DNA from: an uncultured Rhizobiaceae bacterium
Lineage (GTDB): Bacteria > Pseudomonadota > Alphaproteobacteria > CADEGL01
Direction of reading: 5' to 3'
Length of the DNA stretch: 47,071 nt
Assembly: GCA_964477375.1 (NCBI GenBank)
Contig: CAYZFH010000001.1
Location: 3,367 to 50,437, forward strand
Shown here: positions 333 to 31,157 of the stretch, piece by piece
How the letters are laid out: the number at the start of each line of letters is the position of its first letter
How positions within the stretch are numbered: position 1 is the stretch's first letter
Notes under the pieces: generated by a model
Told to the model about the DNA's origin: nothing
What the model saw: only the letters and a program-made list of their open reading frames with translations
Databases searched by the model: none
Program-made: the position numbers and the translations under genes

Positions 333-530
333 ATGAATTGGGATACGACCAAAGGCAACTGGAATCAGTTCAAGGGCAAGGTCAAGGAACAGTGGGGCAA
401 GCTGACCGATGACGATCTGGCCCGCATCGAAGGCCAGCGCGACCAGCTTCTCGGCCGCGTGCAGGAGCGCTATGGCATCGAGAAGGAAGAAGCCGAAAAG
501 CAGGTGAAGCAGTTCGAGAGCCGCCACTAA
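333..530 (+). CDS. csbD: CsbD-family stress response protein
   Basis: 65 aa reading MNWDTTKGNWNQFKGKVKEQWGKLTDDDL...GRVQERYG, the typical CsbD repeat signature. GAAGGAG RBS at 321-327. Terminator follows. Confidence 0.9.
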   Translation: MNWDTTKGNWNQFKGKVKEQWGKLTDDDLARIEGQRDQLLGRVQERYGIEKEEAEKQVKQFESRH

Positions 531-586: not shown

Positions 587-1747
587 CTAGCGTCCGGTCA
601 CAAAGGCGCGGAAGCGGCGCGCCACATCCTTGGGCGCGACCGTGGGGCGGCCGAGTTTCTCCATCGAGCCCGGTGCGATGCGGGCGTGGATCAATGAGGG
701 GCCGGATGTCTTGATCGCGGTGCGGAAAGCGTCCTGGAAACCATCCGCGTCGTCGCAGCGCGCGGCGGTGGCATAGCCGCAGGCCAGCGCCGCCGAGGCG
801 AAGTCGACCGAAGGCGAGACGGTTGCCTGGCCGCCGGTCGAATCATGGGTGCCGTTGTCCAGCACGATGTGAATCAAGTTCTTCGGTGCATAGGCGCCGA
901 TGGTGGCCAGGTTGCCCATCTTCATCAGTGCCGCGCCGTCGCCGTCCAGCACCACCACGGGACGTTCCGTGTTCAGCGCGACGCCAAGGCCCATGGCGCT
1001 TGCGCCGCCCATGGAGCCGACCTGATAGAGGTGTTGCGCGCGGTCGGCCAGGGTGAACAGTTCGCGGCCGCATTTTCCGGTCGTGGCGACCACGGCGGCT
1101 TCGGCGGGCACGATGTCGAGGAAGCGCGTAAGGACATCGGCGCGTGTCGGCCGTGCGCCGTGCCGTCGCAGATCGGCCGAGGCGCCCGCAGGCCGCGTCT
1201 CGGGAGCGGCTTGGTCCAGCCCGTCATCGCGCACGGAATCCTTTTCCATCACGAAGGCGAAGGGCAGGGCGCTGGAGCCCATGTGGGACAACGCGGCTTC
1301 GAGCGCGGGCGCGACTTGGCTTTCCGCGCGCGGAAACGGCGCGTGGCGGATTTCCATCGCTTCCAGCAGGCGCTGGGTGATCTGGCCCATCAGCTCGTGC
1401 TGCGGCTCGTCCTTCAATCCCGGCTGGCCGCGCCAGGTCACGATCAGAAGCGTCGGGATACGGAACGGATAATTGAGGGACGTCAGAGGATTGACCGTGT
1501 TTCCCAGGCCCGAGTTCTGGCACATCACGGCGGTTTCGCGCCCGGCCAGCCAAGCGCCCGCCGCGATCGCGACCGCTTCGCCCTCGCTGGCCGCGCCGAC
1601 ATAGCGGATGCGTTTGTCGGAAATGACCCGGTTGATCAGCGGCGTCAAGAACGAGCAGGGCACGCCGGTATAGAAATCGACGCCGCACGCCCGCGCCGCA
1701 TCGAGAAAGATGTCGGCGGAGATTTGGCTAGAGGAAGTTGCGGGCAT
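587..1747 (-). CDS. ppd: Phosphonopyruvate decarboxylase (ThDP-dependent)
   Basis: 386 aa. The N-terminus ([28 protein letters not shown]) and the ThDP motif [16 protein letters not shown]...[18 protein letters not shown] are typical of Ppd/AepY. The start overlaps the pepM stop by 20 nt, indicating an operon. Confidence 0.85.
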
Positions 1748-3395
1748 TCGCCAGATCGTAGGCGTCGTTGACGTCGAGCCACTGGCCCGCGACGTAGGTC
1801 ACATCCAGCCGCACACCGCGCGCGACCAGGCGGCCGAACAGATCGGGCAAGCCCGCCGTCTTCCAGGAGCCATCGGCTTTCATGGAAGCGATCTCTTCGC
1901 GCACCAGTGCCGATCCCTTGGCACTCAGCTTGGCCAGGCCGACCCATTCGCCGTCGATGGCGTTCGGCTTCAGGATGCCGCCGATGCCGGTGATGGTGGC
2001 GTGTTCGTCGTCCAGCACGCCGGCGGTCGAGGGGCGTGAACAATTGACCAGGTCGCGCGTGCGCCCGCCCCCCACGCCCTCGCGCGCCTTCCACAGCGCA
2101 TCGACGGCGAGCACGATGTCGCCCGGCGCATCCAGAAGGGAGGACAGGATGTGGTTGCGGAACAGGATGTCGCCATAGCTGATCAGGCATTCGCCTTCGA
2201 TCTGCTTCTCGGCGCAAGCCAGCGACGCCACTTCGCCCGTGGTCTCGTAGGCGTCGTTGTCGACCGTGCGGATCGCGGGAACGTCGATCGCATCCTTGCG
2301 ATAGCCGCGCACGACGGTCACGTCGCGCACGCCCTGTTCGCGCAGGGAGCCAACCAGGCGGCGCAGCAAAGGCTGGCCGCGGATATCGACCATGCATTTC
2401 GGCTTGTCGGCGGTCAGCGCTTCTAGCGTGCTGCCGCGCGAGGCGGCCAGCACCACGGCCTTGGGCTTCGCCTTGGCAACACCGAGATAGCGCCGCTCGG
2501 CGTCGTTCAACTCCGCGTTCTCCGACAGGTCGAAGACGTCCTGCACGCTGGCCACGCGGCCTTCCACGCTCGCCAGATTGCCTTCGCGGTAGATGCGCTC
2601 GGAGGTCTCGCGCATGGCCGTGATGGCCGCGCGCAGATTGTGGTTGGCCCAGATCACCAGCGAGACGCCGGCGTCGGCGAAGGCCTCGGTCGGCGTCGCG
2701 TGATACATGGTCGGCACGATGACGACGGGGCAGCGACCGGCCCATTCGGTCATGAAGCGCAGGATCTCGTCGGCGGTCTTCAGCTTGGAGTGGATCAGGA
2801 TCGCGTCGGCGCCGGCCGCGTGATAGGCCTCGGCGCGGCGCAACGCCTCGTCGATGCCCCAGCCCGAGATCAGCGCCTCAACGCGCGCGACCATGCAGAA
2901 ATCGTCGTCAAGCTGGCTGTCCTTGCCGGCCTTGATCTTGCCGCAGAACTCCTCGATGTCGGCCAAAGGCTGGGCGTCGCCGATGAAGCTGTTGGTCTTG
3001 GGGAACAGCTTGTCCTCGATGCACACGCCCGCGATGTTGCGCTGGCACAGCTTGCGCACCAGGCGGCGCACATTGTTGAAATTGCCATAGCCCGTGTCGC
3101 CGTCGACCAGGATGGGGATCCGGGTGGCGTCGGACATGAATTCCAGGACCTCGAGCACCTGGGTCCAGGACGCCTCGTTGGAATCGCGCACGCCCAGCGC
3201 GGCCGAGATCGACAAGCCCGAGGCCCAGATGCCCTCGAAGCCCGCCTGCTCGACGATCTTCGCCGACAGGCCGTTATGGGCCTCCATGATGAAGGACAGT
3301 TCGGGCGCGTTCAGCATCGCACGCAGCCGCGCGGCCTTGCTGGGCTGCGCGTCGGTGGGCGGCGTCCGGGGGATCGCGACCGGTCTCTGGGCCAT
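1728..3395 (-). CDS. pepM: Phosphoenolpyruvate mutase fused to a C-terminal nucleotidyltransferase (PntC/LicC-like) domain
   Basis: 555 aa. Residues 1-300 are isocitrate-lyase/PEP-mutase fold and carry the PepM-diagnostic EDKxxxxxNS motif (E127-DKLFPKT-NS136, nt 2988-3017). Residues about 312-555 start with [31 protein letters not shown], a sugar/phosphobase nucleotidyltransferase signature. Confidence 0.9.
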
Positions 3396-3461
3396 GGGGC
3401 GGGACTTAAACCGGCCTTCTCCGGGAACTCAAGGCCTAAGGCGGTCCCGGGCGGGCGGCCT

Positions 3462-3483
3462 GCCGTTCCGGTCCTGGAACGGC
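3462..3483 (+). promoter_or_regulatory. Perfect 8-bp hairpin/palindrome in the pepM-ligase divergent intergenic region
   Basis: GCCGTTCC-ggtcct-GGAACGGC with a T5 run 7 nt downstream (3491-3495), about 65 nt upstream of the ligase ATG. It could be a leader structure or a protein-binding dyad. Function unknown. Confidence 0.3.
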
Positions 3484-3546
3484 GCTGCCATTTTTATGGG
3501 CTCCCTATATCATTGGCCCCGTTGGGGGATTTCGGAAGGCAGGGAA

Positions 3547-5166
3547 ATGGTTGCCAGCACCCATGATGCCGTCGCGTTCCGGCGGGCCGTCGAGGCCGAG
3601 CCATTGCCGGAAACCCTGCCCGCACTCCTGGACCAGGCGGCCTCGCGCCATCCCGACCGGCTGATCTGGAACTTCTTCGAGCGGAACGAGAGCTACACCT
3701 ACCGCCAGGCGCAGGAGCGCGTGGCGCGGGCTGCCAACGCCCTGCGCGCGCTCGGTGTGCGCAAGGGCACCCATGTCGGGATCATGTCGCCCAACGTCGG
3801 CGCCTTTCCCGTCACCTGGCTCGCGCTCGGGCGGCTCGGCGCCGTAGCGGTCGCGCTCAACACCCGCTACACGCCGCGTGAGGTCGATTACGTCCTACGC
3901 GACAGCGACGCCGACTTCTTCATCGTGCACGAAAGCCTGCGCGCGATTTATGAAGCGATTCCCGACAAGCCGCCGCGCATCGCGAAAGACCGCATCGTTG
4001 TCATCGAAGGCGCGGGCTCCGGCTACAAAGTCTGGGACGATTTGGTGAATGCAGCGGCGCCCGACTTCACGGCGCAGGAGCCGGTCGCCTGCGACGACGT
4101 GCTCAACATCCAATACACCTCGGGCACCAGCGGCTTCCCCAAGGGCTGCCTGCTGACGCATCGCTATTGGCTGACCATGGGCAAGTCGCACAGCGCGATC
4201 ACCGAGATGCCGATCGAGCGTGCGCTCTACAACCAAAACTTCTTCTATCTGGACGGGCCGTGCATCGCGACGATGTGCATGTTCCTGGGCGCCACGTTCT
4301 TCTTCGCGTCCAAGCCGAGCGCCGCCAAGTTCGTCGAATGGGCGCGCACCCACCGCATCAATTACTTGTTCTTCTTCGAAGTGCTCTACAAGCAGCCCGA
4401 GACCCCGCTCGACGGTCAGAGCGAGTTGAAGATGATTCACATCTTCGGCTTCAACAAAAAATACCACACCGATCTCGAACGCCGCTTCGCGCTGATCGCG
4501 CGCGAGTCCTACGGTATGACCGAGGCCGGTTGCATCACCTACATGCCGGTGGCGGACGCGCACATGGTGGGCTCTGGCTCCTGCGGCATCCCCGCACCCT
4601 GGCGCGAGGTGAAGATCGCGGGCGACGACGGCGTGCCCGTCGCGCGTGGCGAGATCGGTGAATTGTGGGTGCGCGGCCCGGGCATGATGCTGGGCTACTA
4701 CAAGAAGCCCGAGGCCAATGCCGAATCCCTGCGCGACGGCTGGTTCCTGACCGGCGATCTGCTGCGGCAGGATGAGGCCGGCTACTACTACATTGTGGGC
4801 CGGAAGAAGGACATGATCCGGCGCAACGCCGAGAACGTCGCCGCGCGCGAGGTCGAGGCCGTGCTGCGTGGCCTGCCGCAAGTGAAGGAAGCCGCCGTGG
4901 TGCCGGTGCCGGACGAGCGGGTGGGCGAGGAGATCAAGGCCTATCTGCAACTCCAGCCGGGCTTGAAGCACGCCGATCTTCCGCCCGAACAGGTGATCGC
5001 CCACTGCAAGGCGAATCTCGCCAGCTTCAAGATCCCGCGCTACATCGCCTTCGCGGACACGTTTCCGATGACCGATTCGGACCGGGTCGAGAAGAAAAAG
5101 CTCGTCGCGGGCGTGCCCGACCTCACGCGCGACAGTTACGATCGCGTCGACAACATCTGGCGATAG
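3547..5166 (+). CDS. AMP-dependent synthetase/ligase (ANL superfamily, acyl-CoA synthetase-like)
   Basis: 539 aa from ATG 3547 (ggaaggcagggaa upstream). Motifs present: A3 YTSGTSGFPKGC, A5 YGMTE, A7 TGDL and A8 GRKKDMIRR. The ORF-track extension 3094-3546 lies antisense to pepM and is not used. Confidence 0.85.
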   Translation: MVASTHDAVAFRRAVEAEPLPETLPALLDQAASRHPDRLIWNFFERNESYTYRQAQERVARAANALRALGVRKGTHVGIMSPNVGAFPVTWLALGRLGAVAVALNTRYTPREVDYVLRDSDADFFIVHESLRAIYEAIPDKPPRIAKDRIVVIEGAGSGYKVWDDLVNAAAPDFTAQEPVACDDVLNIQYTSGTSGFPKGCLLTHRYWLTMGKSHSAITEMPIERALYNQNFFYLDGPCIATMCMFLGATFFFASKPSAAKFVEWARTHRINYLFFFEVLYKQPETPLDGQSELKMIHIFGFNKKYHTDLERRFALIARESYGMTEAGCITYMPVADAHMVGSGSCGIPAPWREVKIAGDDGVPVARGEIGELWVRGPGMMLGYYKKPEANAESLRDGWFLTGDLLRQDEAGYYYIVGRKKDMIRRNAENVAAREVEAVLRGLPQVKEAAVVPVPDERVGEEIKAYLQLQPGLKHADLPPEQVIAHCKANLASFKIPRYIAFADTFPMTDSDRVEKKKLVAGVPDLTRDSYDRVDNIWR

Positions 5167-5177
5167 GGAAAACGAGG

Positions 5178-5570
5178 ATGGCCGAGAAGGAACCGGTGAC
5201 CGAGGGGATGCTGCGCTTGCGCCTCGGCCTGCACGACACCCATTACGCGGACGGTCTGATCCCCGCGGCCACGATCATGCGCCTGTTCGCCGATTGCCAG
5301 TCCGAGGTGTCGATCCGCATGGACGGTGTCGACGGCTACATGGCGGCGTACGAGAAGTCGGAATTCCTGAAGCCCATCTATGCCGGCGACTATCTCGAGA
5401 TTCGCGCGAAGCTGATCGGCCAAGGCAACCGTTCGCGGCGCTTCGCCATGGAAGCCCTGCGCTGCTTGGCGACCAAGGAGCTGGGCGGCGGATTATCGGG
5501 CGGCACCATTTTCGATCCGCCGGAGCTTGTGGCGCGTGCAACGCTGGTGTGCGTGAAGCCGCGCACCTGA
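5178..5570 (+). CDS. Hotdog-fold protein resembling 3-aminobutyryl-CoA / beta-alanyl-CoA ammonia-lyase (Kal-like)
   Basis: 130 aa, starting 12 nt after the ligase stop. The pattern LRLRLGLHDTHYADGLIPAATIMRLFAD...DGVDGYMAAYEKSEFLKPIYAGDYLE matches my recollection of the Kal family. The specific lyase call is tentative; the hotdog fold is likely. Confidence 0.6.
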   Translation: MAEKEPVTEGMLRLRLGLHDTHYADGLIPAATIMRLFADCQSEVSIRMDGVDGYMAAYEKSEFLKPIYAGDYLEIRAKLIGQGNRSRRFAMEALRCLATKELGGGLSGGTIFDPPELVARATLVCVKPRT

Positions 5571-5642
5571 CGGGCCGCCCCGTGGCGGGCGGCGCCCATC
5601 GCGGGCGATGCGGCGGCTGCCGGCGGCATCACGGTCAATGCT

Positions 5643-5843
5643 TTGGCTATCCTGCAGAACGATCTGAAGGGTCCGTCCGGCAAGCCGCTTCTGGTCGAAA
5701 CCTACGAGCGCGAAGTGATCGGCGGGCCGGGCGCTTTTGCGATGGCCGCGCGTGAACGGGCGGACTTCGCCCGCGCCCTGCGCCAGAAGATGGTGCGCGA
5801 GATCGCGGGTGCAGAGAAACCGCTGACGCTTGCCAGTCAGTAG
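5643..5843 (+). CDS. Small hypothetical protein (66 aa, TTG start)
   Basis: Only possible start in frame after the in-frame TGA at 5568-5570. Third positions are strongly GC-biased, consistent with coding. The 3' end overlaps the convergent gene by 7 nt. No family recognised. Confidence 0.35.
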   Translation: MAILQNDLKGPSGKPLLVETYEREVIGGPGAFAMAARERADFARALRQKMVREIAGAEKPLTLASQ

Positions 5844-6535
5844 CGCGTCGCGGCCGCTTTATCGGGCGCGGGAGTCTCCAGCAGCTTGCCGGCGCGCGCC
5901 TCCATGGCGTCGCGCGGGCGCAGACGCCGCGCCTGCGCCGTGCTCAGAAGCGGGAAGTGGCGCGTCTCGTCGATCGCGAGCGCGGCGTCCCAGCAATGGT
6001 CCTTGCTGGTGACCCACAGGGCGGGATCGAGGCGGCGCAAATCGTAGGGCTGCGAATAGCGGCGCAGCGTCTTCCGCGTGCCGATGACGTATTCGTGAAA
6101 ATAGGACAGCGCCAGTTCGCGCGGGCTGCGGTAGATCGGATCACGCCAGCGCAGCCAGATGTGGTTGCTCTTCGAGATGGCGCCCCAGTGTTTGCCGCGG
6201 CGGAACAGGGCCACCACATGGTCATCGTCGCCCTGCGCCTGGAAATCCATCAGCAGCGGCGGTTGTCCCGCCAGCCACAGGGCGCAGGCCGCGGTGAACG
6301 CGGCCTCGATGCAATGGGCGTGGCCGGCGTCGAGCGTGGACGCGACCGAAAGGCAGGTATCGCCGTTCGGCTCGAAGTTGGTCGGCAGGGCGGAGATGAA
6401 ATCCTGAATGCGTTCCGGCGTGCGCAGCTTCGCCAAGGTCGCCGCATGGGCGCGCGAAAGCCCGAGCTTGCGCCCGAGCGCCGTACCGCGCAGGCGGCTT
6501 CGCTTAGAAACGGTCGGCGCGGAACGGCGCGACAT
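5837..6535 (-). CDS. Hypothetical protein, possible papain/transglutaminase-like Cys-His hydrolase fold
   Basis: 232 aa. GHAHCIEAAFTAACAL (candidate nucleophile Cys) is followed by DDDHVVALF (candidate His). The start overlaps the upstream FAD oxidoreductase stop by 32 nt. The fold call is weak. Confidence 0.55.
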   Translation of the reverse strand: MSRRSAPTVSKRSRLRGTALGRKLGLSRAHAATLAKLRTPERIQDFISALPTNFEPNGDTCLSVASTLDAGHAHCIEAAFTAACALWLAGQPPLLMDFQAQGDDDHVVALFRRGKHWGAISKSNHIWLRWRDPIYRSPRELALSYFHEYVIGTRKTLRRYSQPYDLRRLDPALWVTSKDHCWDAALAIDETRHFPLLSTAQARRLRPRDAMEARAGKLLETPAPDKAAATRY

Positions 6536-7775
6536 CGAAATCCGTTTTGCGGCCGGCGACGAGATCGGCGATGGCCTTGCCGGTCACGGCACCCAGCGTC
6601 AGGCCGTAATGATCGTGGCCGAAGGCCAGCATGACGCCGGGTGTATTGGGCGCGGGGCCGACGACCGGCTTCGAATCCGGCAGCGACGGCCGCATGCCCA
6701 TCCAGGGGACAGCACCCTCGGTGTTCAACCCGGGCACCAGGCGCTTGGCGCGCTTAATCATCGGGTCGACGCGGCGATAGTCGGGCGCCGCATGTACGCT
6801 GGCCAATTCGTCAGTGCCGGCGATGCGCAAGCCCAATTCCATCGGCGTCATATAGAAGCCGCCTTCGGCGGACTTCACCGGAATGCGCAGCTCGACGCCG
6901 GGGTTCGGCAGCATGGCGTGATAGCCGCGTTCGGTATCCAGCGGCACGCGCGATCCGGCCTGTGCGGCGAATTGCTTGGACAGCGCGCCGGCCGCGACGA
7001 CGACCAGATCGGCGTCCAGCGGCGCACCGTCCGTGTGCACGGTCGACTTGCCGCCGCCCTTGGCCTCGATGCGCTTGGCCTCGCCGCGCACGAACGTGCC
7101 GCCGCGCTTCGCCGCCAGTTCGGCGATGCGCTGGCTGTGCTTCAGCGGGTTGATGACGGTGTCCATGTCGGTGCGATGGATGCCGCCCGCGAAATTGCCG
7201 GCGAGCGCAGGCTCGATCTGGCGGATTTCCTCCGGGCCCACCACGTTCAGCGGCACGCCGTGGCGTTGGCGCATCTTCACGCTGGTCTGGATGTTGTCGA
7301 ACGCGGTCTTGGTTTCGAACACCTCCAGCGCGCCGCGCGGGCGGATCAGGTCGGCCAGGCCCGCTTCGGCCACGATGGGCTCATAGCATTTGCGCGCATG
7401 CGCGATCATCGCGCCGAAATCGCGCATGAAGGATTCGACGTTCTGCGGCGTCGCGGAGGCGACGAAGCGGATAAGCCAAGGCGCCAAGGTCAGAAGGTGG
7501 GCCCAGCGGATGGTCAAGGGACCCATCGGGTCCATCAGCATGCCGGGCACGCGCTTGAGGATACCGGGGGTGGCCAGCGGCAAGAAGGTCGAGTCCGAGC
7601 GTTGCCCGGCGTTGCCGTAGGAGCAGCCTTCGCCTGGCCCGCGCGGGTCGATCCAGGTGACTTGCCAGCCGTCGCGCTGCAGATAAGTGCCGCAGCACAG
7701 TCCCACGATGCCCGCGCCGATCACCACCGCATGGCCGCGGCCGCTTGTGCCCTGAGACGTCACGAGATCCCCCAT
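6504..7775 (-). CDS. FAD-dependent oxidoreductase, D-amino-acid dehydrogenase/DAO family
   Basis: The GHAVVIGAGIVGLCCGTYLQRDG dinucleotide-binding motif and about 420 aa length are typical of DadA-like enzymes. Start is taken at ATG 7775 (MGDLVTSQ); a GTG at 7799 is an alternative. Confidence 0.8.
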   Translation of the reverse strand: MGDLVTSQGTSGRGHAVVIGAGIVGLCCGTYLQRDGWQVTWIDPRGPGEGCSYGNAGQRSDSTFLPLATPGILKRVPGMLMDPMGPLTIRWAHLLTLAPWLIRFVASATPQNVESFMRDFGAMIAHARKCYEPIVAEAGLADLIRPRGALEVFETKTAFDNIQTSVKMRQRHGVPLNVVGPEEIRQIEPALAGNFAGGIHRTDMDTVINPLKHSQRIAELAAKRGGTFVRGEAKRIEAKGGGKSTVHTDGAPLDADLVVVAAGALSKQFAAQAGSRVPLDTERGYHAMLPNPGVELRIPVKSAEGGFYMTPMELGLRIAGTDELASVHAAPDYRRVDPMIKRAKRLVPGLNTEGAVPWMGMRPSLPDSKPVVGPAPNTPGVMLAFGHDHYGLTLGAVTGKAIADLVAGRKTDFDVAPFRADRF

Positions 7776-7859
7776 TGGTTGACCTGAGAAAAATACCACA
7801 CCAGGCGCGCGACGGCAATTCGGTTAGCATGGCGCCCCGGTCGGACGGAGAGGGCAGAC

Positions 7860-8246
7860 ATGGCGGCGCATCGGAACTGGTGGCTGGTCTTGGCCGGCTT
7901 GAACGGCGCGGCTTTCGTGGCGCTGGGCGCCTATGGTGCGCACGGTCTGGGAGACGCGCCGCAGGCGCAGCGCTGGTTCGACATTGCGCTCCGCTTTCAC
8001 GCCTGGCATGCGGCGGCCATGCTGGCCGTCGCGCTGTGGCTGCCCGCGGGAAGCGCCGTGCGCTGGCTGCGTGGCATCGCCTTGGCGCTGTTCCTGAGCG
8101 GCACGATTCTCTTCAGCGGCTCTCTTTATCGGATGGCGCTCACGGATTTGCCGCTGTTCGCGGGCGCCGCGCCCATCGGGGGCACGAGTTTCATTCTCGG
8201 CTGGCTTACACTCGCCGCGGCAGGTTTCGTCAGGTCGAGGGCTTGA
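7860..8246 (+). CDS. DUF423-domain inner-membrane protein
   Basis: 128 aa with four hydrophobic helices. The pattern GLNGAAFVALGAYGAHGL...HAWHA...LFSGSLY is typical of DUF423/YgdD-like proteins. GGAGAGGG RBS. Confidence 0.85.
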   Translation: MAAHRNWWLVLAGLNGAAFVALGAYGAHGLGDAPQAQRWFDIALRFHAWHAAAMLAVALWLPAGSAVRWLRGIALALFLSGTILFSGSLYRMALTDLPLFAGAAPIGGTSFILGWLTLAAAGFVRSRA

Positions 8247-8892
8247 AGCTGATCGCCAGTTCCAGCGCGGCCGATTCCAGCAGAGCGCCCATGGTTTTTG
8301 GGGCGTGGGCGCGCCGTCCTGATTTGCCGAAGAACGGACCGCCGCCTTCCATCAGCGCATAGATGCAGGCGGCAGTGCCGCGCCGGCCGGCTTCGTCGAG
8401 ATCCGGACGCAGAGCTTCCAGCAGGATCGCGTATTGGGTGGTGACCCAGTCGTACCAGTCGCCCACGATCGTGCCAGCTTCCTCGTCATGCGCGGCGAAG
8501 GCCCATTTCTCCCAGGCCTGCGCCTTCACCACCTCGTCGCGGCTCAGCGAATTTTCGTAGCGCAGCATGGTCAGAATGCGCGTGCGTGGCTCGGCCGGCG
8601 CGCCCGCCAGATGCTTCGTCCAACGCTCCTTCTGCCGGCTCACCTGATAGGACAGGACGGCGCGCAACAGCGTCGTCTTGGTCGGGAAATAATATTGAAG
8701 ATTGCCTTTGCGCACGCCGGTGGCGCTGGCGATCTTGCCGATGCTCAGGCTGGCGTAACCCTCGCGCCCCATGATCTCGAGCGCGGTCGCCAGGATATGG
8801 TCCGAGGTGCGGCGGCCCTTGGGCGAACGCGGGCGGGCGCTGTCACGGGCCGGTGCCGCGCGGCGCGGCGAGTCCGTTCGTCGTGCGGCCAC
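8230..8892 (-). CDS. TetR/AcrR-family transcriptional regulator
   Basis: HTH region ILATALEIMGREGYASLSIGKIASATGVRKGNLQYYFPTKTTLL. GTG start with AGGGGA RBS. Divergent from the PhyH operon. The 3' end overlaps the DUF423 gene by 17 nt. Confidence 0.9.
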   Translation of the reverse strand: MAARRTDSPRRAAPARDSARPRSPKGRRTSDHILATALEIMGREGYASLSIGKIASATGVRKGNLQYYFPTKTTLLRAVLSYQVSRQKERWTKHLAGAPAEPRTRILTMLRYENSLSRDEVVKAQAWEKWAFAAHDEEAGTIVGDWYDWVTTQYAILLEALRPDLDEAGRRGTAACIYALMEGGGPFFGKSGRRAHAPKTMGALLESAALELAISFKPST

Positions 8893-8987
8893 TGTGTCGA
8901 ATCCCCTGTGTTCCGGTTCCCCGCGCTTAAACTAAGCGCCGCAGGCCCGCTAGTCACGGGTTGACTTGGCTGGATTATTCTCTCTTA

Positions 8988-9007
8988 ATTAGGCCGTACG
9001 ACCTAAT
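8988..9007. promoter_or_regulatory. Candidate TetR operator overlapping a sigma70-like promoter
   Basis: ATTAGGcCGTACGaCCTAAT, with 9 of 10 symmetric pairs. It overlaps the -10 of TTGACT (8961-8966)-N17-CTTAAT (8984-8989), 14 nt upstream of the PhyH ATG at 9021. Confidence 0.4.
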
Positions 9008-9020
9008 AATAGAGGCCGCC

Positions 9021-9938
9021 ATGCCCGCTTCGCCCCTGCCCACGCCGACCAGCGATCTTGCCCGCCTGAAGGCGGACATGGACACGCATGGCTACTGCCT
9101 TGTGGCCGATGCGCTCACTCCAGCACAGGTCGCGACGGCCCGGCAACGGCTGGAGGAGCAGGCCGAGGCCGAGCGTCAGCAAGGCATCCGCATTCAGAAC
9201 GCGCCCCATGTGGACGAGATCAACCAATGGGTGACGATGCTGATCAACAAGGGGCCGATCTTCGCCGAGCTGGCGACCAACCCCGCGACGCTGGCGGTCG
9301 TCGATCATGTCATCGGCGGCGATTTCCTCCTGTCGGTGCTGGAGGCCCATCTGGTGCGCGCGGGCGGCGCGCCCATGTCGCTCCATTGCGACCAATGGTG
9401 GCTGCCGTTCCCCGCTCCGGCCGATGCCTCTTATGCGCGCGTCGGCAAGATCACGCGCGCCACCGTGCCGACCACGCCGGCCGATCCCGCGGGCAAGGTG
9501 ATTTGGCCCGCGGCCGTGGTGAACTGCATGTTCATGCTGACCGATTACACCGAACGAAACGGCGCCACGCGCATCGTGCCCGGCAGCCATCTGAGCGGGG
9601 CGCAGCCTTTGGCGGCTATTCCCCATCCGGTGGAGACGATCGCCGCCGAGGCGCCGGCCGGCACCGCGGTCATCTTCGAAGGGCGCACCTGGCACGCCGC
9701 CGGCCTCAACACGACCAATCAGGCGCGGCTCGGCGTCACCTGCACCTATTGCGGGCCGATGTTCCGCCAGCTCACCAACTTCACCGTCGGGACTTGCGAC
9801 GACGTGCTGCAAGGCGCTTCGCCTTTGCTGCGCCGCCTCTTGGGCTTCAAGATCTGGTCGACCTATGGCGGCGTGGACGACCATGCGGCCGAGTTCATCG
9901 AACGCGCGCCGGGCAAGGTCCGCGAACTGTCGCCCTAG
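9021..9938 (+). CDS. Phytanoyl-CoA dioxygenase (PhyH) family Fe(II)/2-oxoglutarate oxygenase
   Basis: 305 aa from ATG 9021. It has the HxD facial-triad motif (MSLHCDQWW), [11 protein letters not shown] and a distal His in GRTWHAAG. The TTG at 8961 in the ORF track lies inside the promoter/operator and is rejected. Confidence 0.8.
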
Positions 9939-9996
9939 CCTGCGTCGACGCGGCGCGCGACAATCGGGCGAGAATCGCGATGAGGGGGAGGACACC

Positions 9997-10884
9997 ATGA
10001 ACTATGAAGTGATCGTCACCTGCGCCATCACGGGCGCGGGCGATACGGTGGGACGCCATCCGGCGATTCCGGTGACGCCGCAGCAGATCGCGGATTCCGC
10101 GATCGAGGCCGCCAAGGCCGGCGCATCGGTCGTCCATTGCCATGTCCGTGATCCCAAGACCGGCAAGGGCACACGCGACGTGAATCTCTACCGCGAGGTG
10201 GTCGAGCGCATCCGCAAAAGCGGCGTGGACGTCGTGCTCAATCTGACCTGCGGCATGGGTGGAGACCTCACCGTCGACGATGCGGATCCCACGCGCCCCG
10301 GCCCCGGCACCGATCTGGTCGACGCTATGACGCGTCTCGAGCATGTCGTCGAGCTGCGGCCGGAAATCTGCACGCTCGATTGCGGCACGATGAATTTCGG
10401 CGACGGTAATACGATCGTTATCCAGACGCCCAACATGCTGCGCGCGATGGCCAAGCGTGTGCGCGAACTGGGTGTAAAGCCGGAACTCGAAGTGTTCGAC
10501 ACCGGCCAGCTTTGGTTCGGCAAGCAGATGTACCAAGAGGGTCTGCTCGACGATCCGCCGCTGTTCCAGCTTTGCCTGGGCATCCCGTGGGGCGCGCCGG
10601 CCGACAGCCAGACCATGGCGCACATGGTGCAGCAATTGCCGCCCAGCGCCGTCTGGGCCGGTTTCGGTATCAGCCGCGCCCAGATGCCGATGGTGGCGCA
10701 GGCCGCGCTGCTCGGCGGCAATGTGCGCGTGGGCCTCGAGGACAATCTCTATTTGGAGAAAGGCGTCTTCGCGACCAATGCCCAGCTGGTCGAAAAGGCC
10801 ATCCGGATTTTGCGGGAATTGGGCGCGCGGCCCTGCACGGCCGAGGAGACCCGGCAGAGGTTGCGGCTTAAGAAGCAGCGCTAG
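9997..10884 (+). CDS. Beta-keto acid cleavage enzyme (BKACE / 3-keto-5-aminohexanoate cleavage enzyme family, DUF849)
   Basis: 295 aa. The start [15 protein letters not shown], the zinc motif VVHCHVRDP and GLEDNLY are typical of Kce/BKACE. GGGGGAGG RBS at 9984-9991. Confidence 0.85.
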
Positions 10885-10970
10885 AGCCGCAATCGCGTCA
10901 TCCCCGAAACGCATGGCGGGCGCGGCTTCGCGGCTTGCCCGGTGTGGCCGATCGGCCTAGGTTTTCGGCC

Positions 10971-12206
10971 ATGACAGCCATTGCCACGACGACCACGTTC
11001 CGCGCCGACGCCAAGGTCATGGGTCTGGTCGGCACGGCGCATTTCAGCAGCCACTTCTTTCAATTGGCGCTGGCGCCGCTGTTTCCGATCCTGGCCATGC
11101 AATTCGGCGTCAGCTTCGCCGAGCTGGGGGCGGTCGTCACGGTCTTCTATGTCGCGTCCGGCATCTGCCAGGCCTTCGCCGGCATCGTGGTCGATCGTTT
11201 CGGCGCGCGCCCCATTCTGGCGCTCGGCTTGGCATTGTTGGCCGGCTCAATCGCGCTGTCGGGTCTCGTTACACACTATTGGATGCTTTTGCCGCTCGCG
11301 ATCCTGGCCGGCATCGGCAACAGCGTGTTCCATCCGGCGGATTTCTCGATCCTGACCGCCAAGATCGACAAGACCCGCATCGGCCGTGCCTACAGCATTC
11401 ACGCGCTGCTCGGCACCATCGGCTATGCCATGGCGCCGGTCGTGATCACTTTGCTGGCGGAGCAGCTTGGCAACTGGCGGCCCGCTTTGATCGTTCCGGG
11501 CGTGGCCGGCGTCGTCATCGCGTTGATCCTGTGGCGTTCGCCGACCTTGGTGGTGACGCCGACCCATCTTCGCGGCGGTAAAACCGCGGGCGAAACGGCG
11601 GCGTTCAGCTATGGGCGCCTGATCGCCAATCCCGCGATCGTCGCTTCGTTCCTGTATTTCGTCTTCACGGCGGGGGCCAGCATCGGCCTGACGTCGTTCA
11701 GCGTCTCCGCCTTCTCAGAAATCTTCAGTTTCACGACAGGCGATCAGATCGCCCAGGCCGGTTTGCTTCTGACCGCGTTCCTGGTTTCCAGCGCCTCCGG
11801 CATGCTGATCGGCGGCATCATCGCCGACCGCACCACGCGCCATCACATCGTGGCCATGGCGGGCATGACGTCCGCGGCCCTGTTCATGCTGCTGTTGGCC
11901 TTCGGCGATTTGTCCTACTGGGCGACGGTCGCGGCGATGGCGATCGCCGGACTGACCTATGGCAGCACAGCGCCTTCGCGCGACATGCTGGTGCGCGCGG
12001 CGACACCGCCGGGCGCCACGGGCAAGGTCTTCGGCTTTGTCTATTCTGGTCTGGACGTGGGTTCGTGGCTGGTGCCGGTGTTCTACGGCGGTTTCATCGA
12101 CAACCACACGCCGCACTACGTGTTCCTGACCTCGGCCGTCCTGTTCGCCTTTGCGATCGGCACGGTCATGCAGGTGCGCAAGCGTTCGGTGCCGAAGCCC
12201 GCCTAA
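10971..12206 (+). CDS. MFS transporter
   Basis: 411 aa with about 12 hydrophobic helices and the MFS loop motif VDRFGARP between TM2 and TM3. ATG at 10971. Confidence 0.85.
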   Translation: MTAIATTTTFRADAKVMGLVGTAHFSSHFFQLALAPLFPILAMQFGVSFAELGAVVTVFYVASGICQAFAGIVVDRFGARPILALGLALLAGSIALSGLVTHYWMLLPLAILAGIGNSVFHPADFSILTAKIDKTRIGRAYSIHALLGTIGYAMAPVVITLLAEQLGNWRPALIVPGVAGVVIALILWRSPTLVVTPTHLRGGKTAGETAAFSYGRLIANPAIVASFLYFVFTAGASIGLTSFSVSAFSEIFSFTTGDQIAQAGLLLTAFLVSSASGMLIGGIIADRTTRHHIVAMAGMTSAALFMLLLAFGDLSYWATVAAMAIAGLTYGSTAPSRDMLVRAATPPGATGKVFGFVYSGLDVGSWLVPVFYGGFIDNHTPHYVFLTSAVLFAFAIGTVMQVRKRSVPKPA

Positions 12207-12228
12207 CGTCGTCCGCATCACGGAGGGG

Positions 12229-13032
12229 ATGATGACGGAGGTTCTCTGGGGAAATTTGCGGGCGCCAGCCTTGCGCGCGCTCGCCGCGCGCGGTGCGCTT
12301 GCCATCGTGCCCGTGGGTTCCATCGAGCAGCACGGCCCCCATCTGCCGGTCCAGGTCGATGCCCTGCTGGCGGGCGAGATCGCGCGCCGCGCGGCGGTGA
12401 AGGTCGCGAAGAAGCAACCCGTTGTCGTCGCGCCCACGATCTGGTCGGGCCTGGCCGAACATCACATGTCGCTGGGCGGCACCATCACGCTCGACCTGCC
12501 GACGTTCCACGCGGTGATCCGCTGCGTCTGCGCTTCCATCCTGCGTCACGGCTTCAAGCGCATTTTGATCCTGAACGGCCATGGCGGGAACATCGCGGCG
12601 TTGACAGTCCTGGTCGGTGAGCTGGCGCGCGATCTCGACGCCTCCATTGCCACCGCAACCTACTGGACGATGCCGGAGACGCAGGCCTCGTTCGCCAAGA
12701 TCCTGAAGAAGCAGAAAACCGTGCGTCACGCCTGCGAGGCCGAGACGTCGATGCTGCTCGTGCTGAAGCCCGAGCTGGTCGACCGCGCCGCCGCGCGGAG
12801 CGTGCGTGCGCCGATCGAGGGGCTGGCGCCGGAGGACGGCATCTACCGCTATCGCCCCATCGCCCATTGGACGAAGTCGGGCGTGCTGGGCGTGCCCTCG
12901 GCGGCATCGGTGGATAAGGGCGAGAAACTTCTCGAAGCGGCGGCTGCTTCCGTCGCGAATGCGATTCTGGCTGGCAAGGCATGGCGGAGCGATGACGCCT
13001 CTCCTCGTAAGCGAAAGGGTAAGCGTTCATGA
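12229..13032 (+). CDS. Creatininase-family amidohydrolase
   Basis: 267 aa. The metal-binding motifs GSIEQHGPHLP, NGHGGN and ACEAETS are typical of the creatinine amidohydrolase/MftE family. GGAGGGG RBS. Confidence 0.85.
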   Translation: MMTEVLWGNLRAPALRALAARGALAIVPVGSIEQHGPHLPVQVDALLAGEIARRAAVKVAKKQPVVVAPTIWSGLAEHHMSLGGTITLDLPTFHAVIRCVCASILRHGFKRILILNGHGGNIAALTVLVGELARDLDASIATATYWTMPETQASFAKILKKQKTVRHACEAETSMLLVLKPELVDRAAARSVRAPIEGLAPEDGIYRYRPIAHWTKSGVLGVPSAASVDKGEKLLEAAAASVANAILAGKAWRSDDASPRKRKGKRS

Positions 13033-28399: not shown

Positions 28400-29016
28400 C
28401 ACCAGACCTGGAGCTGTTGGAAGAAACGGGTCACGGCATAGAAGCCGGTGCCCACGATGGCGGCGAAGACGGCAAGCGCCACGGCGCTGGCCAAGACGCC
28501 GGCCAGCACCGTCACGCCGTCGGCTTCGATCAGCCCGAGCGAGACGATGGCGATGCCGATGGCGGGCAGAAGATTGGCGCCCACGAGAGGCAGCAGCAGC
28601 ACGAAGCCCAGCACGACCAAGAGAAGGCCGAGCAGCCGTTCGGCCAGCCCCTGCGGCGTCACGGTCAGGCGCGGCTTGCAGTAGCGCTCGAAGCGTTCGA
28701 TGGACGGGCGCACCCGGTCGGCCATGCGTTTGAAGTCGGCGCGGCGCACATCGCGCGCGAGCAGTTTCCGGGGCAGCCACGGGCGCTTTTGGCCCAACAT
28801 CATCTGGCCGGCCGTGATCACGATCAGCATGCCGAACAGCGAGGAGATGCCGGGCAGGGGGATCATGTTGGGCAGCGCCCAGATGAACAGGATGACGCCG
28901 AAGCCCCGGTCGCCCAACTCCTCCGCCAGATCGGCGAAGGACAGGCGATCTTCGGGATGGCCTTCGTCCGCGATGCGCCGCAGAAGCGTGGAAATGCGTT
29001 CGTGATGCGGTCGCAT
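28399..29016 (-). CDS. exoD: ExoD-family exopolysaccharide synthesis protein
   Basis: 205 aa from ATG 29016. LSFADLAEELGDRGFGVILFIWALPNMIPLPGISS...LPRKLL is typical of ExoD. Its TGA shares one nt with the ndvC-like ATG (TGATG). Confidence 0.8.
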   Translation of the reverse strand: MRPHHERISTLLRRIADEGHPEDRLSFADLAEELGDRGFGVILFIWALPNMIPLPGISSLFGMLIVITAGQMMLGQKRPWLPRKLLARDVRRADFKRMADRVRPSIERFERYCKPRLTVTPQGLAERLLGLLLVVLGFVLLLPLVGANLLPAIGIAIVSLGLIEADGVTVLAGVLASAVALAVFAAIVGTGFYAVTRFFQQLQVW

Positions 29017-29173
29017 GGACGGCGAAAACTCCCAACAGGTTGGCCATAAAGACCCCACCGGGCGGCGGGCGTCAATCGCGCGAAAGGCCGTTTTTTCGCC
29101 AGATTCCGCGTGTCGGGCCTTGAAGGTTCGGGGCCGCTGTTGGAAACATGGGCGGCCAACCGAGGGGACCCCC

Positions 29174-30172
29174 ATGCAAATCCAGACGCCGTATCTTTTG
29201 TTCCTGGGCGACGCCCGTGACCAGCTCGCCGCCAAGACCGCCCAGGGCATCGCCTATTGGCGTCCGGAATGGTGCGTGGGGCAGCTTCGCCTGCCGGACT
29301 GCAACGCCAATCTCGGCCTCAAGGAATTGACCATCGCGGATGCCGCCAAGGCGGGCGTGAAGACGGTGATCGTCGGCGTGGCCAACCGCGGCGGCATTAT
29401 TTCCGACGCTTGGACCACGGTCCTCAACGAGGCGCTGGAGCGCGGCATGGATCTGGCGGCGGGCCTCCACAACAAACTGTCCGAAGTGCCGAAGCTGCGC
29501 GAAACGGCCGCGCGCCTTGGCCGTCAACTGTTTGACGTGCGCCACCCGACGAAGCCTTTCCCGCTCGGCACCGGCGCCAAGCGGCCTGGTCTGCGCCTCC
29601 TGGCCGTTGGCACCGACGTCTCGTCGGGCAAGATGTACACGACGCTCGCACTCGAGAAGGAATTGAAGAAACGCGGCCGCAAGGCAGATTTCCGCGCCAC
29701 CGGCCAGACCGGCATTTTCATCGCCGGCAGCGGCGTATCGATCGACGCCGTGGTTTCCGACTTCGTCTCGGGTGCCGTCGAAGAGCTGTCGCCACCCAAC
29801 GATCCCGACCATTGGGACCTGGTGGAAGGGCAGGGCTCGCTGTTCCACGCCTCGTATGCCGGCGTCACGCTCGGCCTCATCCACGGCTCGCAGCCGGACG
29901 CGCTGGTCATGTGCCACGAGCCGACGCGTCAGCATGTGCGCGGCCTGCCGCACTACAAGCTGCCGGGCATCAAGGAATGCATGGAAGCCAATCTGGCCGC
30001 CGCGCGCCTGACCAATCCGGCCGCCAAGTTCGTCGGCATCGCGCTCAACACCTCGCAGATGTCCGAGGCCGATGCGCTGAAGGAGATCAAGAAGACTGAG
30101 GACGCGCACGGCCTGCCCACGGTCGATCCGGTGCGCCAGGGCGTCGCCAAGATCGCCGACCGTCTCTGGTAG
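29174..30172 (+). CDS. dgcN: DUF1611-family protein (DgcN-like D-glutamate N-acetyltransferase family)
   Basis: 332 aa from ATG 29174 (GAGGGGA RBS). PYLLFLGD...AKTA.GI..WRPE and VGTD.SSGKMYT are typical of DUF1611. It is paired with an enolase-superfamily epimerase, as in the described DgcN/DgcA module. The symbol is tentative. Confidence 0.7.
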   Translation: MQIQTPYLLFLGDARDQLAAKTAQGIAYWRPEWCVGQLRLPDCNANLGLKELTIADAAKAGVKTVIVGVANRGGIISDAWTTVLNEALERGMDLAAGLHNKLSEVPKLRETAARLGRQLFDVRHPTKPFPLGTGAKRPGLRLLAVGTDVSSGKMYTTLALEKELKKRGRKADFRATGQTGIFIAGSGVSIDAVVSDFVSGAVEELSPPNDPDHWDLVEGQGSLFHASYAGVTLGLIHGSQPDALVMCHEPTRQHVRGLPHYKLPGIKECMEANLAAARLTNPAAKFVGIALNTSQMSEADALKEIKKTEDAHGLPTVDPVRQGVAKIADRLW

Positions 30173-30176
30173 TTCG

Positions 30177-31157
30177 ATGACGGATCTCGACGTCCGCCGC
30201 GAATCCTGGCCGATCCGCGGCACCTTCGCCATCTCGCGCGGCAGCCGCACCGCGACCGAAGTCGTCGTCGTCGAGCTGACGCGCGACGACCATATCGGGC
30301 GTGGCGAATGTGTGCCCTATCCCCGCTATGGCGAGACGGTCGAAGGCGTGATCGCGGACATCGAATCGTTGCGCGCGCGCCTGGCGGGTGGGCTCGACCG
30401 CGACGGGTTGCAGACGGCGCTGCCGGCCGGCGCCGCGCGCAATGCTGTCGATTGCGCCTTTTGGGACCTGGAAGCCAAGCGCGCTGGACGGCGCGCCTTT
30501 GAACTTGCTGGCTTACCTGCGCCCCAGCCGCTTACCACCGCCTACACGCTCTCGCTCGATGCGCCCGAGGCTATGGGGCGTGCCGCGGCGGCGAACGCGC
30601 ACCGTCCGCTCCTCAAGCTCAAGGTGACGGGCGATGGCGATCTGGATCGCGTGCGTGCCGTCCGCGCCAACGCGTTGGGGTCCAAATTGGTGGTCGACGC
30701 CAACGAGGCATGGACGCCCGAACAGTTCACGCGCTTTGTGCCGGAGTTGGCGGGGCTTGGCGTCACCATGATCGAGCAGCCGCTGCCCGCAAAGGCGGAT
30801 GCGCCATTGGCTTCGCTCAAGCGTGCCATTCCGGTCTGCGCCGACGAATCCTGCCACGATGCGAGCACGATCGAAGAGCTGGTCGGCCGCTACGACATGA
30901 TCAACATCAAGCTCGACAAGACCGGCGGCCTGACCGAGGCGCTGAAGCTGCGCGCTGCCGCCGAGGCCAAGGGCTTCGGCGTCATGGTCGGCTGCATGAT
31001 CGCGACCTCGCTGTCGATGGCGCCCGCGGTCCTCGTGGCGCAGGGCGCCGCAGTCGTCGATCTCGACGGGCCGCTTCTCCTCGCGCGCGACCGCGATGCG
31101 GGCCTGCGCTATGACGGCAGCACGGTCCATCCCGCGGACGCCGCCCTCTGGGGCTGA
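30177..31157 (+). CDS. dgcA: Enolase-superfamily dipeptide epimerase-like protein (DgcA-like N-acetyl-D-Glu racemase family)
   Basis: 326 aa, 4 nt after the DUF1611 stop. KLKV, VDANEAW, IEQPL, CADES and INIKLDKTGGLTEA are the MLE-subgroup metal and acid/base motifs. The symbol is tentative. Confidence 0.75.
   Translation: MTDLDVRRESWPIRGTFAISRGSRTATEVVVVELTRDDHIGRGECVPYPRYGETVEGVIADIESLRARLAGGLDRDGLQTALPAGAARNAVDCAFWDLEAKRAGRRAFELAGLPAPQPLTTAYTLSLDAPEAMGRAAAANAHRPLLKLKVTGDGDLDRVRAVRANALGSKLVVDANEAWTPEQFTRFVPELAGLGVTMIEQPLPAKADAPLASLKRAIPVCADESCHDASTIEELVGRYDMINIKLDKTGGLTEALKLRAAAEAKGFGVMVGCMIATSLSMAPAVLVAQGAAVVDLDGPLLLARDRDAGLRYDGSTVHPADAALWG

Follow-up and report, generated by a model that had tools for sequence, protein, structure and literature searches.

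The phosphoenolpyruvate (PEP) mutase Ppm, encoded by pepM (aepX), is most commonly fused to a PF12804 nucleotidyltransferase (NTase) domain, which is found on 33% of Ppm proteins, and these fusions have been taken as a sign that phosphonate biosynthesis proceeds predominantly through nucleotidyl activation (Rice 2019, PMC6697681). Ppm with the phosphonopyruvate decarboxylase Ppd, encoded by ppd (aepY), but without a known branch-point enzyme is also a recognised category, termed 'post-Ppd other' (Li & Horsman 2022, PMC8942020). Here, we analysed a pepM-ppd pair at positions 587-3,395 of a 47,071-nt stretch of contig CAYZFH010000001.1 from an uncultured Rhizobiaceae bacterium; this whole stretch is called the window below, and all coordinates are window positions. 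The architecture is that of the described AepX fusions (Rice 2019, PMC6697681), without any difference: a PF13714 domain with the EDKxxxxxNS motif, a PF12804 domain, and ppd immediately downstream. We propose, at a probability of about 0.55, that the pair is a functional, translationally coupled two-gene core that would generate phosphonoacetaldehyde, with the later steps encoded in trans. Its features are as follows.

1728-3395, minus strand: aepX/pepM, PEP mutase with a C-terminal LicC/PntC-fold nucleotidyltransferase-like domain, 555 aa (TIGR02320, PF13714, PF12804).
2517-3326, minus strand: PEP mutase TIM-barrel domain, residues 24-293 (Foldseek, invariant columns).
2988-3017, minus strand: PepM-diagnostic EDKxxxxxNS motif, residues 127-136 (translation).
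1731-2462, minus strand: PntC/LicC-fold domain with a non-canonical active site, residues 312-555 (domain model, Foldseek, hhalign).
2397-2441, minus strand: divergent P-loop S319-R-G-S-T...P332-K333 (alignment with PntC/LicC).
587-1747, minus strand: aepY/ppd, thiamine diphosphate (ThDP)-dependent phosphonopyruvate decarboxylase, 386 aa (TIGR03297, PF02776, PF02775).
1728-1747, minus strand: 20-nt overlap of the pepM stop and the ppd start (open reading frame coordinates).
544-586: G+C-rich hairpin between the convergent csbD and ppd genes, core stem 551-560/569-578 (folding, conservation).
3396-3547: divergent control region of pepM and an AMP-ligase gene, 152 bp, 90% identity in five genomes.

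The mutase half scored 395.4 bits against TIGR02320, above the equivalog cut-off of 319.55, and matched PF13714 at 3.4e-63 over residues 24-268. The EDKxxxxxNS motif, which an earlier note on this DNA had reported as intact, was indeed found at residues 127-136, and 109 of 120 close homologues carried the identical motif string. In Foldseek searches the best matches of this half were the Mytilus structures 1PYM and 1S2T (60-65% identity, target-normalised TM-score, TMt, 0.89-0.95). Nine columns, D71, D98, D100, E127, K133, N135, S136, R171 and H202, were invariant across 91 PepM homologues, and they align in that order with D58, D85, D87, E114, K120, N122, S123, R159 and H190 of Mytilus PEP mutase, which we take to be its catalytic residues. 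By strong homology the window pepM thus encodes a predicted PEP mutase.

The second gene is likewise complete. Its product scored 446.6 bits against TIGR03297 (cut-off 312.5), with residues 22-383 covering model positions 1-360 of 360, and it carries both ThDP domains, PF02776 and PF02775, as well as a GDG-X25-DN ThDP motif read from the translation, so that strong homology predicts a full-length phosphonopyruvate decarboxylase. The 20-nt overlap with the pepM stop described by the earlier note was borne out, and the overlap, the gene lengths and the start codons were identical in four related genomes (L001, L006, L007 and L008), which suggests translational coupling. Across these four genomes and the window dS was 0.25-0.56. 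Comparing the window with the four relatives, dN/dS was 0.03-0.13 for the PepM domain, 0.09-0.22 for the NTase-like domain and 0.055-0.095 for Ppd, and all three are under purifying selection. The AlphaFold model of the 555-aa fusion had a mean predicted local distance difference test score (pLDDT) of 84.9.

Partner genes were sought across the window by scanning all open reading frames (ORFs) with coding-like G+C at third codon positions against Pfam, and many also against NCBIfam. No aminotransferase, iron-dependent alcohol dehydrogenase (Fe-ADH), free NTase, CDP-alcohol (CDP-OH) transferase, LicD or glycosyltransferase was detected among the credible ORFs of the 47 kb, nor did the window contain a PhnY-type dehydrogenase, a MpnS/HepD-type enzyme, or a free PntC with a CDP-alcohol phosphatidyltransferase at the locus. 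A 2-aminoethylphosphonate (AEP) transaminase adjoining pepM/ppd was found neither in the 47 kb nor in the flanks of the syntenic relatives. The window extends only 586 nt past ppd; in the syntenic L001, whose PepM is 90% identical, 10 kb past ppd held no tailoring genes and consisted of CsbD, PRC-barrel proteins and a PhyR, NepR and EcfG stress module. The statement that no tailoring enzyme lies in or next to the operon therefore stands for the window and for the L001 flank.

We then compared the locus with its relatives. The protein collection contained more than 8000 homologues of the fusion protein, with PF13714 and PF12804 together in 120 of the 120 best. A scan of species-representative genomes with the fusion protein returned 80 loci, almost all from uncultured Alphaproteobacteria or Rhodospirillales, in which genes were called, clustered and searched with seed proteins; because the gene calls were heuristic, a second round of seed searches was run with tblastn so that fewer genes would be missed. 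For the neighbourhood counts we used the 53 loci flanked on each side by 5 kb or more and sought partner genes within 10 kb. The ppd gene lay directly downstream in 39 of the 53. Among these 39 ppd-containing loci, a class-V AEP transaminase was present in four, a free NTase in 19 and a CDP-alcohol transferase in 11, and each of those 11 also had a free NTase. Sixteen of the 39 were orphan pairs, lacking AEP transaminase, free NTase, CDP-OH transferase, DegT and LPG-synthase genes, and their flanks were unrelated and mostly encoded ATP-binding cassette transporters. Chromosome-level genomes with an orphan pair are OZ245851.1, OZ241738.1, OZ251509.1 and OZ244947.1. The window gene order itself was common to L001, L006, L007 and L008, at 90-93% identity. 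The remaining 14 loci lacked ppd, and 12 of these had a DegT-type aminotransferase nearby. With 16 orphan pairs and only 4 pairs with an adjacent transaminase among the 39, the arrangement is not unusual; the fusion and the lack of a branch-point enzyme both belong to recognised classes, and the two-gene form is one that a known system often takes. Like the window, members of 'post-Ppd other' have Ppm and Ppd and none of the seven known branch-point enzymes; families of that category usually carry other distinctive biosynthetic genes, whereas no gene at the window locus is plausibly linked (PMC8942020).

More complete clusters among the relatives point to what the missing steps may be. Over its full length the window fusion is 51-59% identical to the annotated aepX of Roseomonas, Mycetohabitans, Burkholderia and Cupriavidus. 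The 'Burkholderiales_CDP-OH' or Group 1 clusters (PMC8942020) share the fused Ppm and Ppd core with an SRG-type fused domain; the window has only two of their seven core genes at the locus, and no oxygenase, AEP transaminase, second NTase or lipid genes in the 47 kb. Related alphaproteobacterial clusters share further partners with this type, namely free PntC, AEP transaminase, CDP-OH transferase and the LPG-synthase domain. An AEP transaminase lay near pepM in L003, L064, L071, Roseomonas and Mycetohabitans. In L003 (71% identity) the locus included a free NTase, three CDP-OH transferases, LPG_synthase_TM, MMPL, MlaC and Aminotran_5. On Roseomonas marmotae plasmid p1318-3 (L086) a free cytidylyltransferase, aepX, aepY, an LPG-synthase-domain protein, an AEP transaminase and a CDP-alcohol transferase were followed by hpn/shc, L089 held a complete cluster similar to these two, and on Mycetohabitans rhizoxinica pBRH01 (L090) the seven-gene 'Burkholderiales_CDP-OH' core was followed by dxs, an MMPL transporter gene and ispH. 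In L086, L089 and L090, hopanoid or isoprenoid genes thus had CDP-alcohol transferases and an LPG-synthase-domain protein as neighbours, and squalene-hopene cyclase and hpnH-type genes occurred with ispH and MMPL in L086, L088 and L089; overall, MMPL, MlaC/VacJ and hopanoid genes accompany the complete clusters found in relatives. The hopanoid cluster of L088 contained a free PntC-like NTase, and pepM was absent from the 10 kb around it, indicating that the pepM-ppd and lipid modules can be separate.

These observations are consistent with the following route. By homology, the PepM domain would convert PEP to phosphonopyruvate, and Ppd would convert phosphonopyruvate to phosphonoacetaldehyde and CO2, an irreversible step expected to pull the unfavourable mutase equilibrium forward. 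We infer that phosphonoacetaldehyde would then become AEP by the action of a transaminase encoded elsewhere, that CMP activation would be carried out mainly by a canonical free PntC-type cytidylyltransferase encoded elsewhere, and that CDP-alcohol phosphotransferases, also encoded elsewhere, would attach the product to a lipid, as would apply to the many relatives in which the pair is just as isolated. The end product is likely a membrane phosphonolipid, if Roseomonas, Mycetohabitans and several metagenome-assembled genomes (MAGs) with complete clusters are taken as a guide. The two options of the earlier note, that the steps are encoded in trans or that the NTase domain has another role, remain the right ones.

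The role of the fused C-terminal domain bears directly on this route. PF12804 matched at 1.6e-12 over residues 313-431, and the domain-only model reached a pLDDT of 90.7 and a predicted TM-score (pTM) of 0.90. The best Foldseek match of this model was PntC 6PD2 (E 2.4e-17, query-normalised TM-score, TMq, 0.78), followed by LicC 1JYK (TMt 0.83), with TMq 0.74-0.78 over the PntC-fold matches 6PD1/6PD2 and 1JYK, and hhalign of the domain against 40 free PntC-like NTases gave a probability of 99.1%. Judged from these models, the fold is a complete PntC/LicC fold. By fold the domain thus sides with PntC/LicC and not with Fom1: in the fosfomycin enzyme a PepM is likewise fused to a nucleotidyltransferase, which acts on a downstream phosphonate, but that domain is N-terminal, belongs to PF01467 and has a different fold, whereas the window domain is C-terminal and PF12804, and the Pfam scan of the fusion protein gave no PF01467 match. 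With Tde-PntC and Ari-PntC and with S. pneumoniae LicC (6PD1/6PD2, 1JYK) the window domain shares the fold, K25, D106 and one C-terminal acidic ligand, yet identity is only 17-20%, and GXG(T/S)R, K153, E104 and E-x-D are altered.

We examined these residues across the family. The pyrophosphate site of PntC is defined by GXG(T/S)R-X4-8-PK, and R15A, K25A and K153A each left <10% activity in Tde-PntC (Rice 2019, PMC6697681). At the place of the PntC/LicC sequence G-X-G-(T/S)-R...P-K, the window domain reads S319-R-G-S-T...P332-K333 and so departs from the PntC signature. Columns were counted in 91 fused homologues: the G11 position was S84/T6/A1, the R15 position A49/E11/K10/Q6/T5, and none of the fused sequences examined, 74 to 91 in number, retained G11 or R15. 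K333, equivalent to K25, and D409, equivalent to D106, were invariant. K153 of PntC contacts a phosphonate oxygen; the invariant lysine that corresponds to it in the 40 free NTases aligned to G470 of the window, so the lysine of PntC is lacking there, a placement that depends on the alignment in a low-identity region of about 27% identity; the column was R58/G16/A6 of 91 in the fused family. The metal motif E220-x-D222 of PntC became D541-V-N543 in the window, with D68/N23 at the last position in the family, and the AEP-amine contact E104 (D105 in LicC) was Y407, a near-invariant tyrosine in the family. Further polar residues, K367, N380, E388, D432, D448, R522, Y534, W539 and D547, were invariant, and R320, adjoining the P-loop glycine, was conserved in 90 of 91. 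Given this invariant polar set of its own and the near-invariant R320, the residue pattern clearly argues that the domain does something involving a ligand.

The free NTases adjoining related pepM genes looked quite different. Among 18 compared, G11, R15, K25, D106, E220 and D222 were kept in 18 and G13 and K153 in 17, and their best match in the Protein Data Bank was Tde-PntC over the full length. Burkholderia cenocepacia, Cupriavidus and Mycetohabitans have both forms, with 'AASRGxxL…PK' in the fused domain versus 'AAGxGxRL…PK' in the free enzyme. The idea that the fused domain is a working PntC/LicC-type enzyme, which the earlier note had entertained, thus holds for the fold, but the G and R of GXG(T/S)R and the K153 equivalent are missing. 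From these residues we think that the main activation is carried out by another enzyme, and that the fused domain is more probably either a nucleotidyltransferase with weak or altered activity or an attachment to PepM that binds nucleotides or CMP-phosphonates. For comparison, Ari- and Tde-PntC make CMP-AEP from CTP and AEP with kcat/KM of 10^4-10^5 M-1 s-1. The enzymes assayed were Ari1348, reported as a monomer, and the Tde1415 NTase-AEP transaminase fusion, Oul593 was insoluble, and the Ppm-fused domain appears not to have been among the enzymes assayed (Rice 2019, PMC6697681). Our literature search likewise found no assay of a Ppm-fused PF12804 domain.

The strongest rival to the proposed route is the standard Ppm-PntC model of Rice et al., in which the fused domain is a fully active cytidylyltransferase and the operon, with a housekeeping or catabolic-type transaminase in trans, would be enough to produce CMP-AEP. 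It accounts for PntC being the best structural match (TM 0.78), for the invariance of K25, D106 and the first C-terminal acidic residue with R320 in 90/91, for the purifying selection on the domain and for the lack of a free NTase in the window. We nevertheless consider it unlikely, given the loss of G11 and R15 throughout the fused sequences and the glycine at the K153 position. In addition, the canonical free NTase that co-occurs with every CDP-OH transferase would be redundant, and ppd-less relatives have the same domain with different downstream genes, so its ligand is unlikely to be AEP-specific.

A more general proposal, which we make tentatively and lean against on present evidence, would extend to the PepM-fused PF12804 domains of a large alpha- and betaproteobacterial clade, including those of Burkholderia. 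These would be remodelled modules binding nucleotides or CMP-phosphonates that regulate or scaffold PepM, or catalysts of another reaction, with a separate canonical cytidylyltransferase performing the activation, and PepM-Ppd would be an autonomous phosphonoacetaldehyde cassette feeding a separately encoded, hopanoid-cluster-linked lipid module. A comparable case is GMPPA, a regulatory paralogue with the NTase fold, in which the catalytic residues are altered and a canonical active paralogue exists alongside. By this analogy, an allosteric or product-binding role of the window domain would be a hypothesis only.

Several observations weigh against the proposed phosphonoacetaldehyde core with later steps in trans. 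The trans-encoded AEP transaminase, PntC and transferase were not found in the roughly 47 kb of the genome covered. A trans-encoded PntC was sought in the closest annotated MAG, GCA_054606255.1 (PepM accession MHB1218382.1), by comparing the accession neighbourhoods of PntC homologues; none of the four accessions obtained for 10 candidates matched, a result that does not count as a negative. The fused domain retains K333 (K25), D409 (D106), D541 and the near-invariant R320, and this arginine could substitute for R15, so that some nucleotidyltransferase activity may persist. Finally, 16 loci had a free NTase without an AEP transaminase within 10 kb, and these comprise most of the lipid-type clusters; because most such clusters lack an adjacent transaminase, the phosphonate head group may not be AEP.

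In the second rival, unlinked redox enzymes would turn phosphonoacetaldehyde into a small non-AEP phosphonate, such as 2-hydroxyethylphosphonate (HEP) or phosphonoacetate, and the fused domain would nucleotidylate it, by analogy with the action of Fom1 on HEP. An adjacent AEP transaminase is rare in the clade (4/39), many lipid-type clusters have a NAD-dependent epimerase/dehydratase-family protein instead, and the altered substrate-side residues (Y for E104/D105) would fit another substrate. However, the window lacks Fe-ADH, PhnY-type dehydrogenase and MpnS/HepD-type enzymes, and the pyrophosphate-side residues are changed as well as those on the substrate side. We judge this reading improbable, more so than that of an active fused cytidylyltransferase.

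The third rival draws on the genes upstream. Divergent from pepM lie an AMP-dependent ligase, a 130-aa hotdog protein, a DUF1194 remnant and a 232-aa protein without a family match, then a D-amino-acid-dehydrogenase-like flavoprotein, DUF423, TetR, PhyH, BKACE, a major facilitator superfamily (MFS) transporter and a creatininase-family protein. The hotdog protein resembles 3-aminobutyryl-CoA ammonia lyase (Kal) and the BKACE protein resembles 3-keto-5-aminohexanoate cleavage enzyme, and the genes at 3520-13032 appear to serve the breakdown of a beta-amino or beta-keto acid. Were the pair linked through the shared control region to this AMP-ligase, Kal-like hotdog, BKACE, PhyH and D-amino-acid oxidase (DAO)-type cluster, a novel acylated phosphonate might be made or consumed. 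The 152-bp intergenic region is 90% conserved and contains a perfect palindrome, GCCGTTCC-N6-GGAACGGC at 3462-3483, of which the arms are invariant and the spacer variable in the five genomes, and the synteny extends to L001, L006, L007 and L008. That synteny is nonetheless confined to one shallow lineage (PepM at least 90% identical), the neighbours at other orphan pairs are unrelated, and the cluster resembles a beta-amino-acid or beta-keto-acid catabolic set with its own TetR and MFS genes. We therefore rejected the link as the main reading on the narrowness of its synteny, and regard it as very unlikely; the neighbourhood survey of homologous loci that the earlier note had called for supports conserved order within that lineage only, with unrelated flanks at the other orphan pairs.

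The least credible of these readings is that the pair is what remains, decaying or silent, of a once larger phosphonolipid cluster, as its isolation from all partner genes and the truncated neighbouring DUF1194 gene might suggest. Each of the three parts has a dN/dS far below 1, frameshifts and stops are absent, lengths and overlap are identical in five genomes, and the upstream region and probable terminator are conserved.

The palindrome in the control region is probably an operator. A TetR gene lies at 8230-8892 of the same window. No EcfG-type GGAAC-N15-18-CGTT match was present in 3396-3547, and an EcfG-type promoter for pepM, suggested by the nearby general-stress genes, was discarded, the only match lying elsewhere and at chance frequency. 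A riboswitch or known RNA in the conserved leader was also rejected, with no Rfam match at E up to 1 and a fold z-score of only -1.3.

On the other side of the pair, csbD (333-530, plus strand; PF05532 at 2e-21) is convergent with ppd. The hairpin between them folds at -33.1 kcal/mol (z -3.7) on the plus strand and -27.0 kcal/mol (z -3.3) on the minus strand, and all four relatives have kept it, L001 with a single compensatory change from C-G to U-A. Its weak T tract kept it from being called by a consensus terminator scan. It is a probable terminator for both genes; of the bidirectional terminator facing csbD claimed by the earlier note, the conserved hairpin that is stable on both strands is confirmed, while the terminator role is plausible but not proven. 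Upstream of csbD, at 253-281 on the plus strand, there is an EcfG-type promoter, GGAAC-N17-GGTT, with one mismatch; its blocks are invariant and its spacer is variable in L001, L006, L007 and L008. In L001, genes for PhyR, NepR and an extracytoplasmic function sigma factor lie a few kb beyond csbD.

Some further observations concern the rest of the window. The DUF1194 ORF at 5643-5843 (plus strand) encodes 66 aa that match only the last 42 model positions, and since its syntenic counterpart in L001 has 253 aa, the window copy is a truncated remnant. Farther along are two-component sensors, CoA-ester enzymes, DgcN/DgcA, taurine dioxygenase, HpaB, an RTX protein and catalase; the DgcN/DgcA pair (29006-31157, plus strand), an N-acetyltransferase DgcN and an N-acetyl-D-Glu racemase, scored above the NCBIfam cut-offs for both. 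The DAO-type oxidoreductase at 6504-7799 and the TauD and flavin adenine dinucleotide (FAD)-oxidoreductase genes at 34-39 kb were considered as phosphonate enzymes and rejected, with matches to D-amino-acid dehydrogenase, glycerol-3-phosphate-dehydrogenase-like and taurine dioxygenase models; the sole HpnW-like match among them was a short N-terminal stretch, residues 24-66.

Among the relatives, ten loci (L024, L029, L030, L032, L036, L040, L049, L050, L059 and L072; about 8.5-17 kb) have the fusion without ppd, together with a divergent DegT-type aminotransferase, a PhyH dioxygenase directly downstream and hydantoinase B/A. They appear to form an unassigned type of phosphonate cluster, with a possible branch point at phosphonopyruvate. 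L010 (DATIWG010000080.1), binned as the archaeon Nitrosotalea, encodes an alphaproteobacterial-type fusion that is 70% identical and has the same ASRG motif, with no ppd detected in the stretch examined; it is possibly a case of mis-binning or horizontal transfer.

Taken together, the locus falls into the commonest class of phosphonate core genes as an ordinary example, and no new pathway is indicated. What deserves attention is general rather than specific to the window, namely the non-canonical active site of the Ppm-fused PF12804 domain and its constant pairing with a canonical free enzyme: the fused domain, here and in Burkholderiales, is without residues whose mutation cripples PntC, and a canonical free enzyme is found wherever a lipid transferase is present. 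The frequency of orphan pairs also implies that inventories based on gene neighbourhood undercount or misclassify phosphonate producers. Should the fused domain turn out to be regulatory or inactive, thousands of AepX proteins now labelled 'bifunctional' would have to be re-annotated, and pathway predictions for widespread soil and aquatic Alphaproteobacteria would have to be revised as well.

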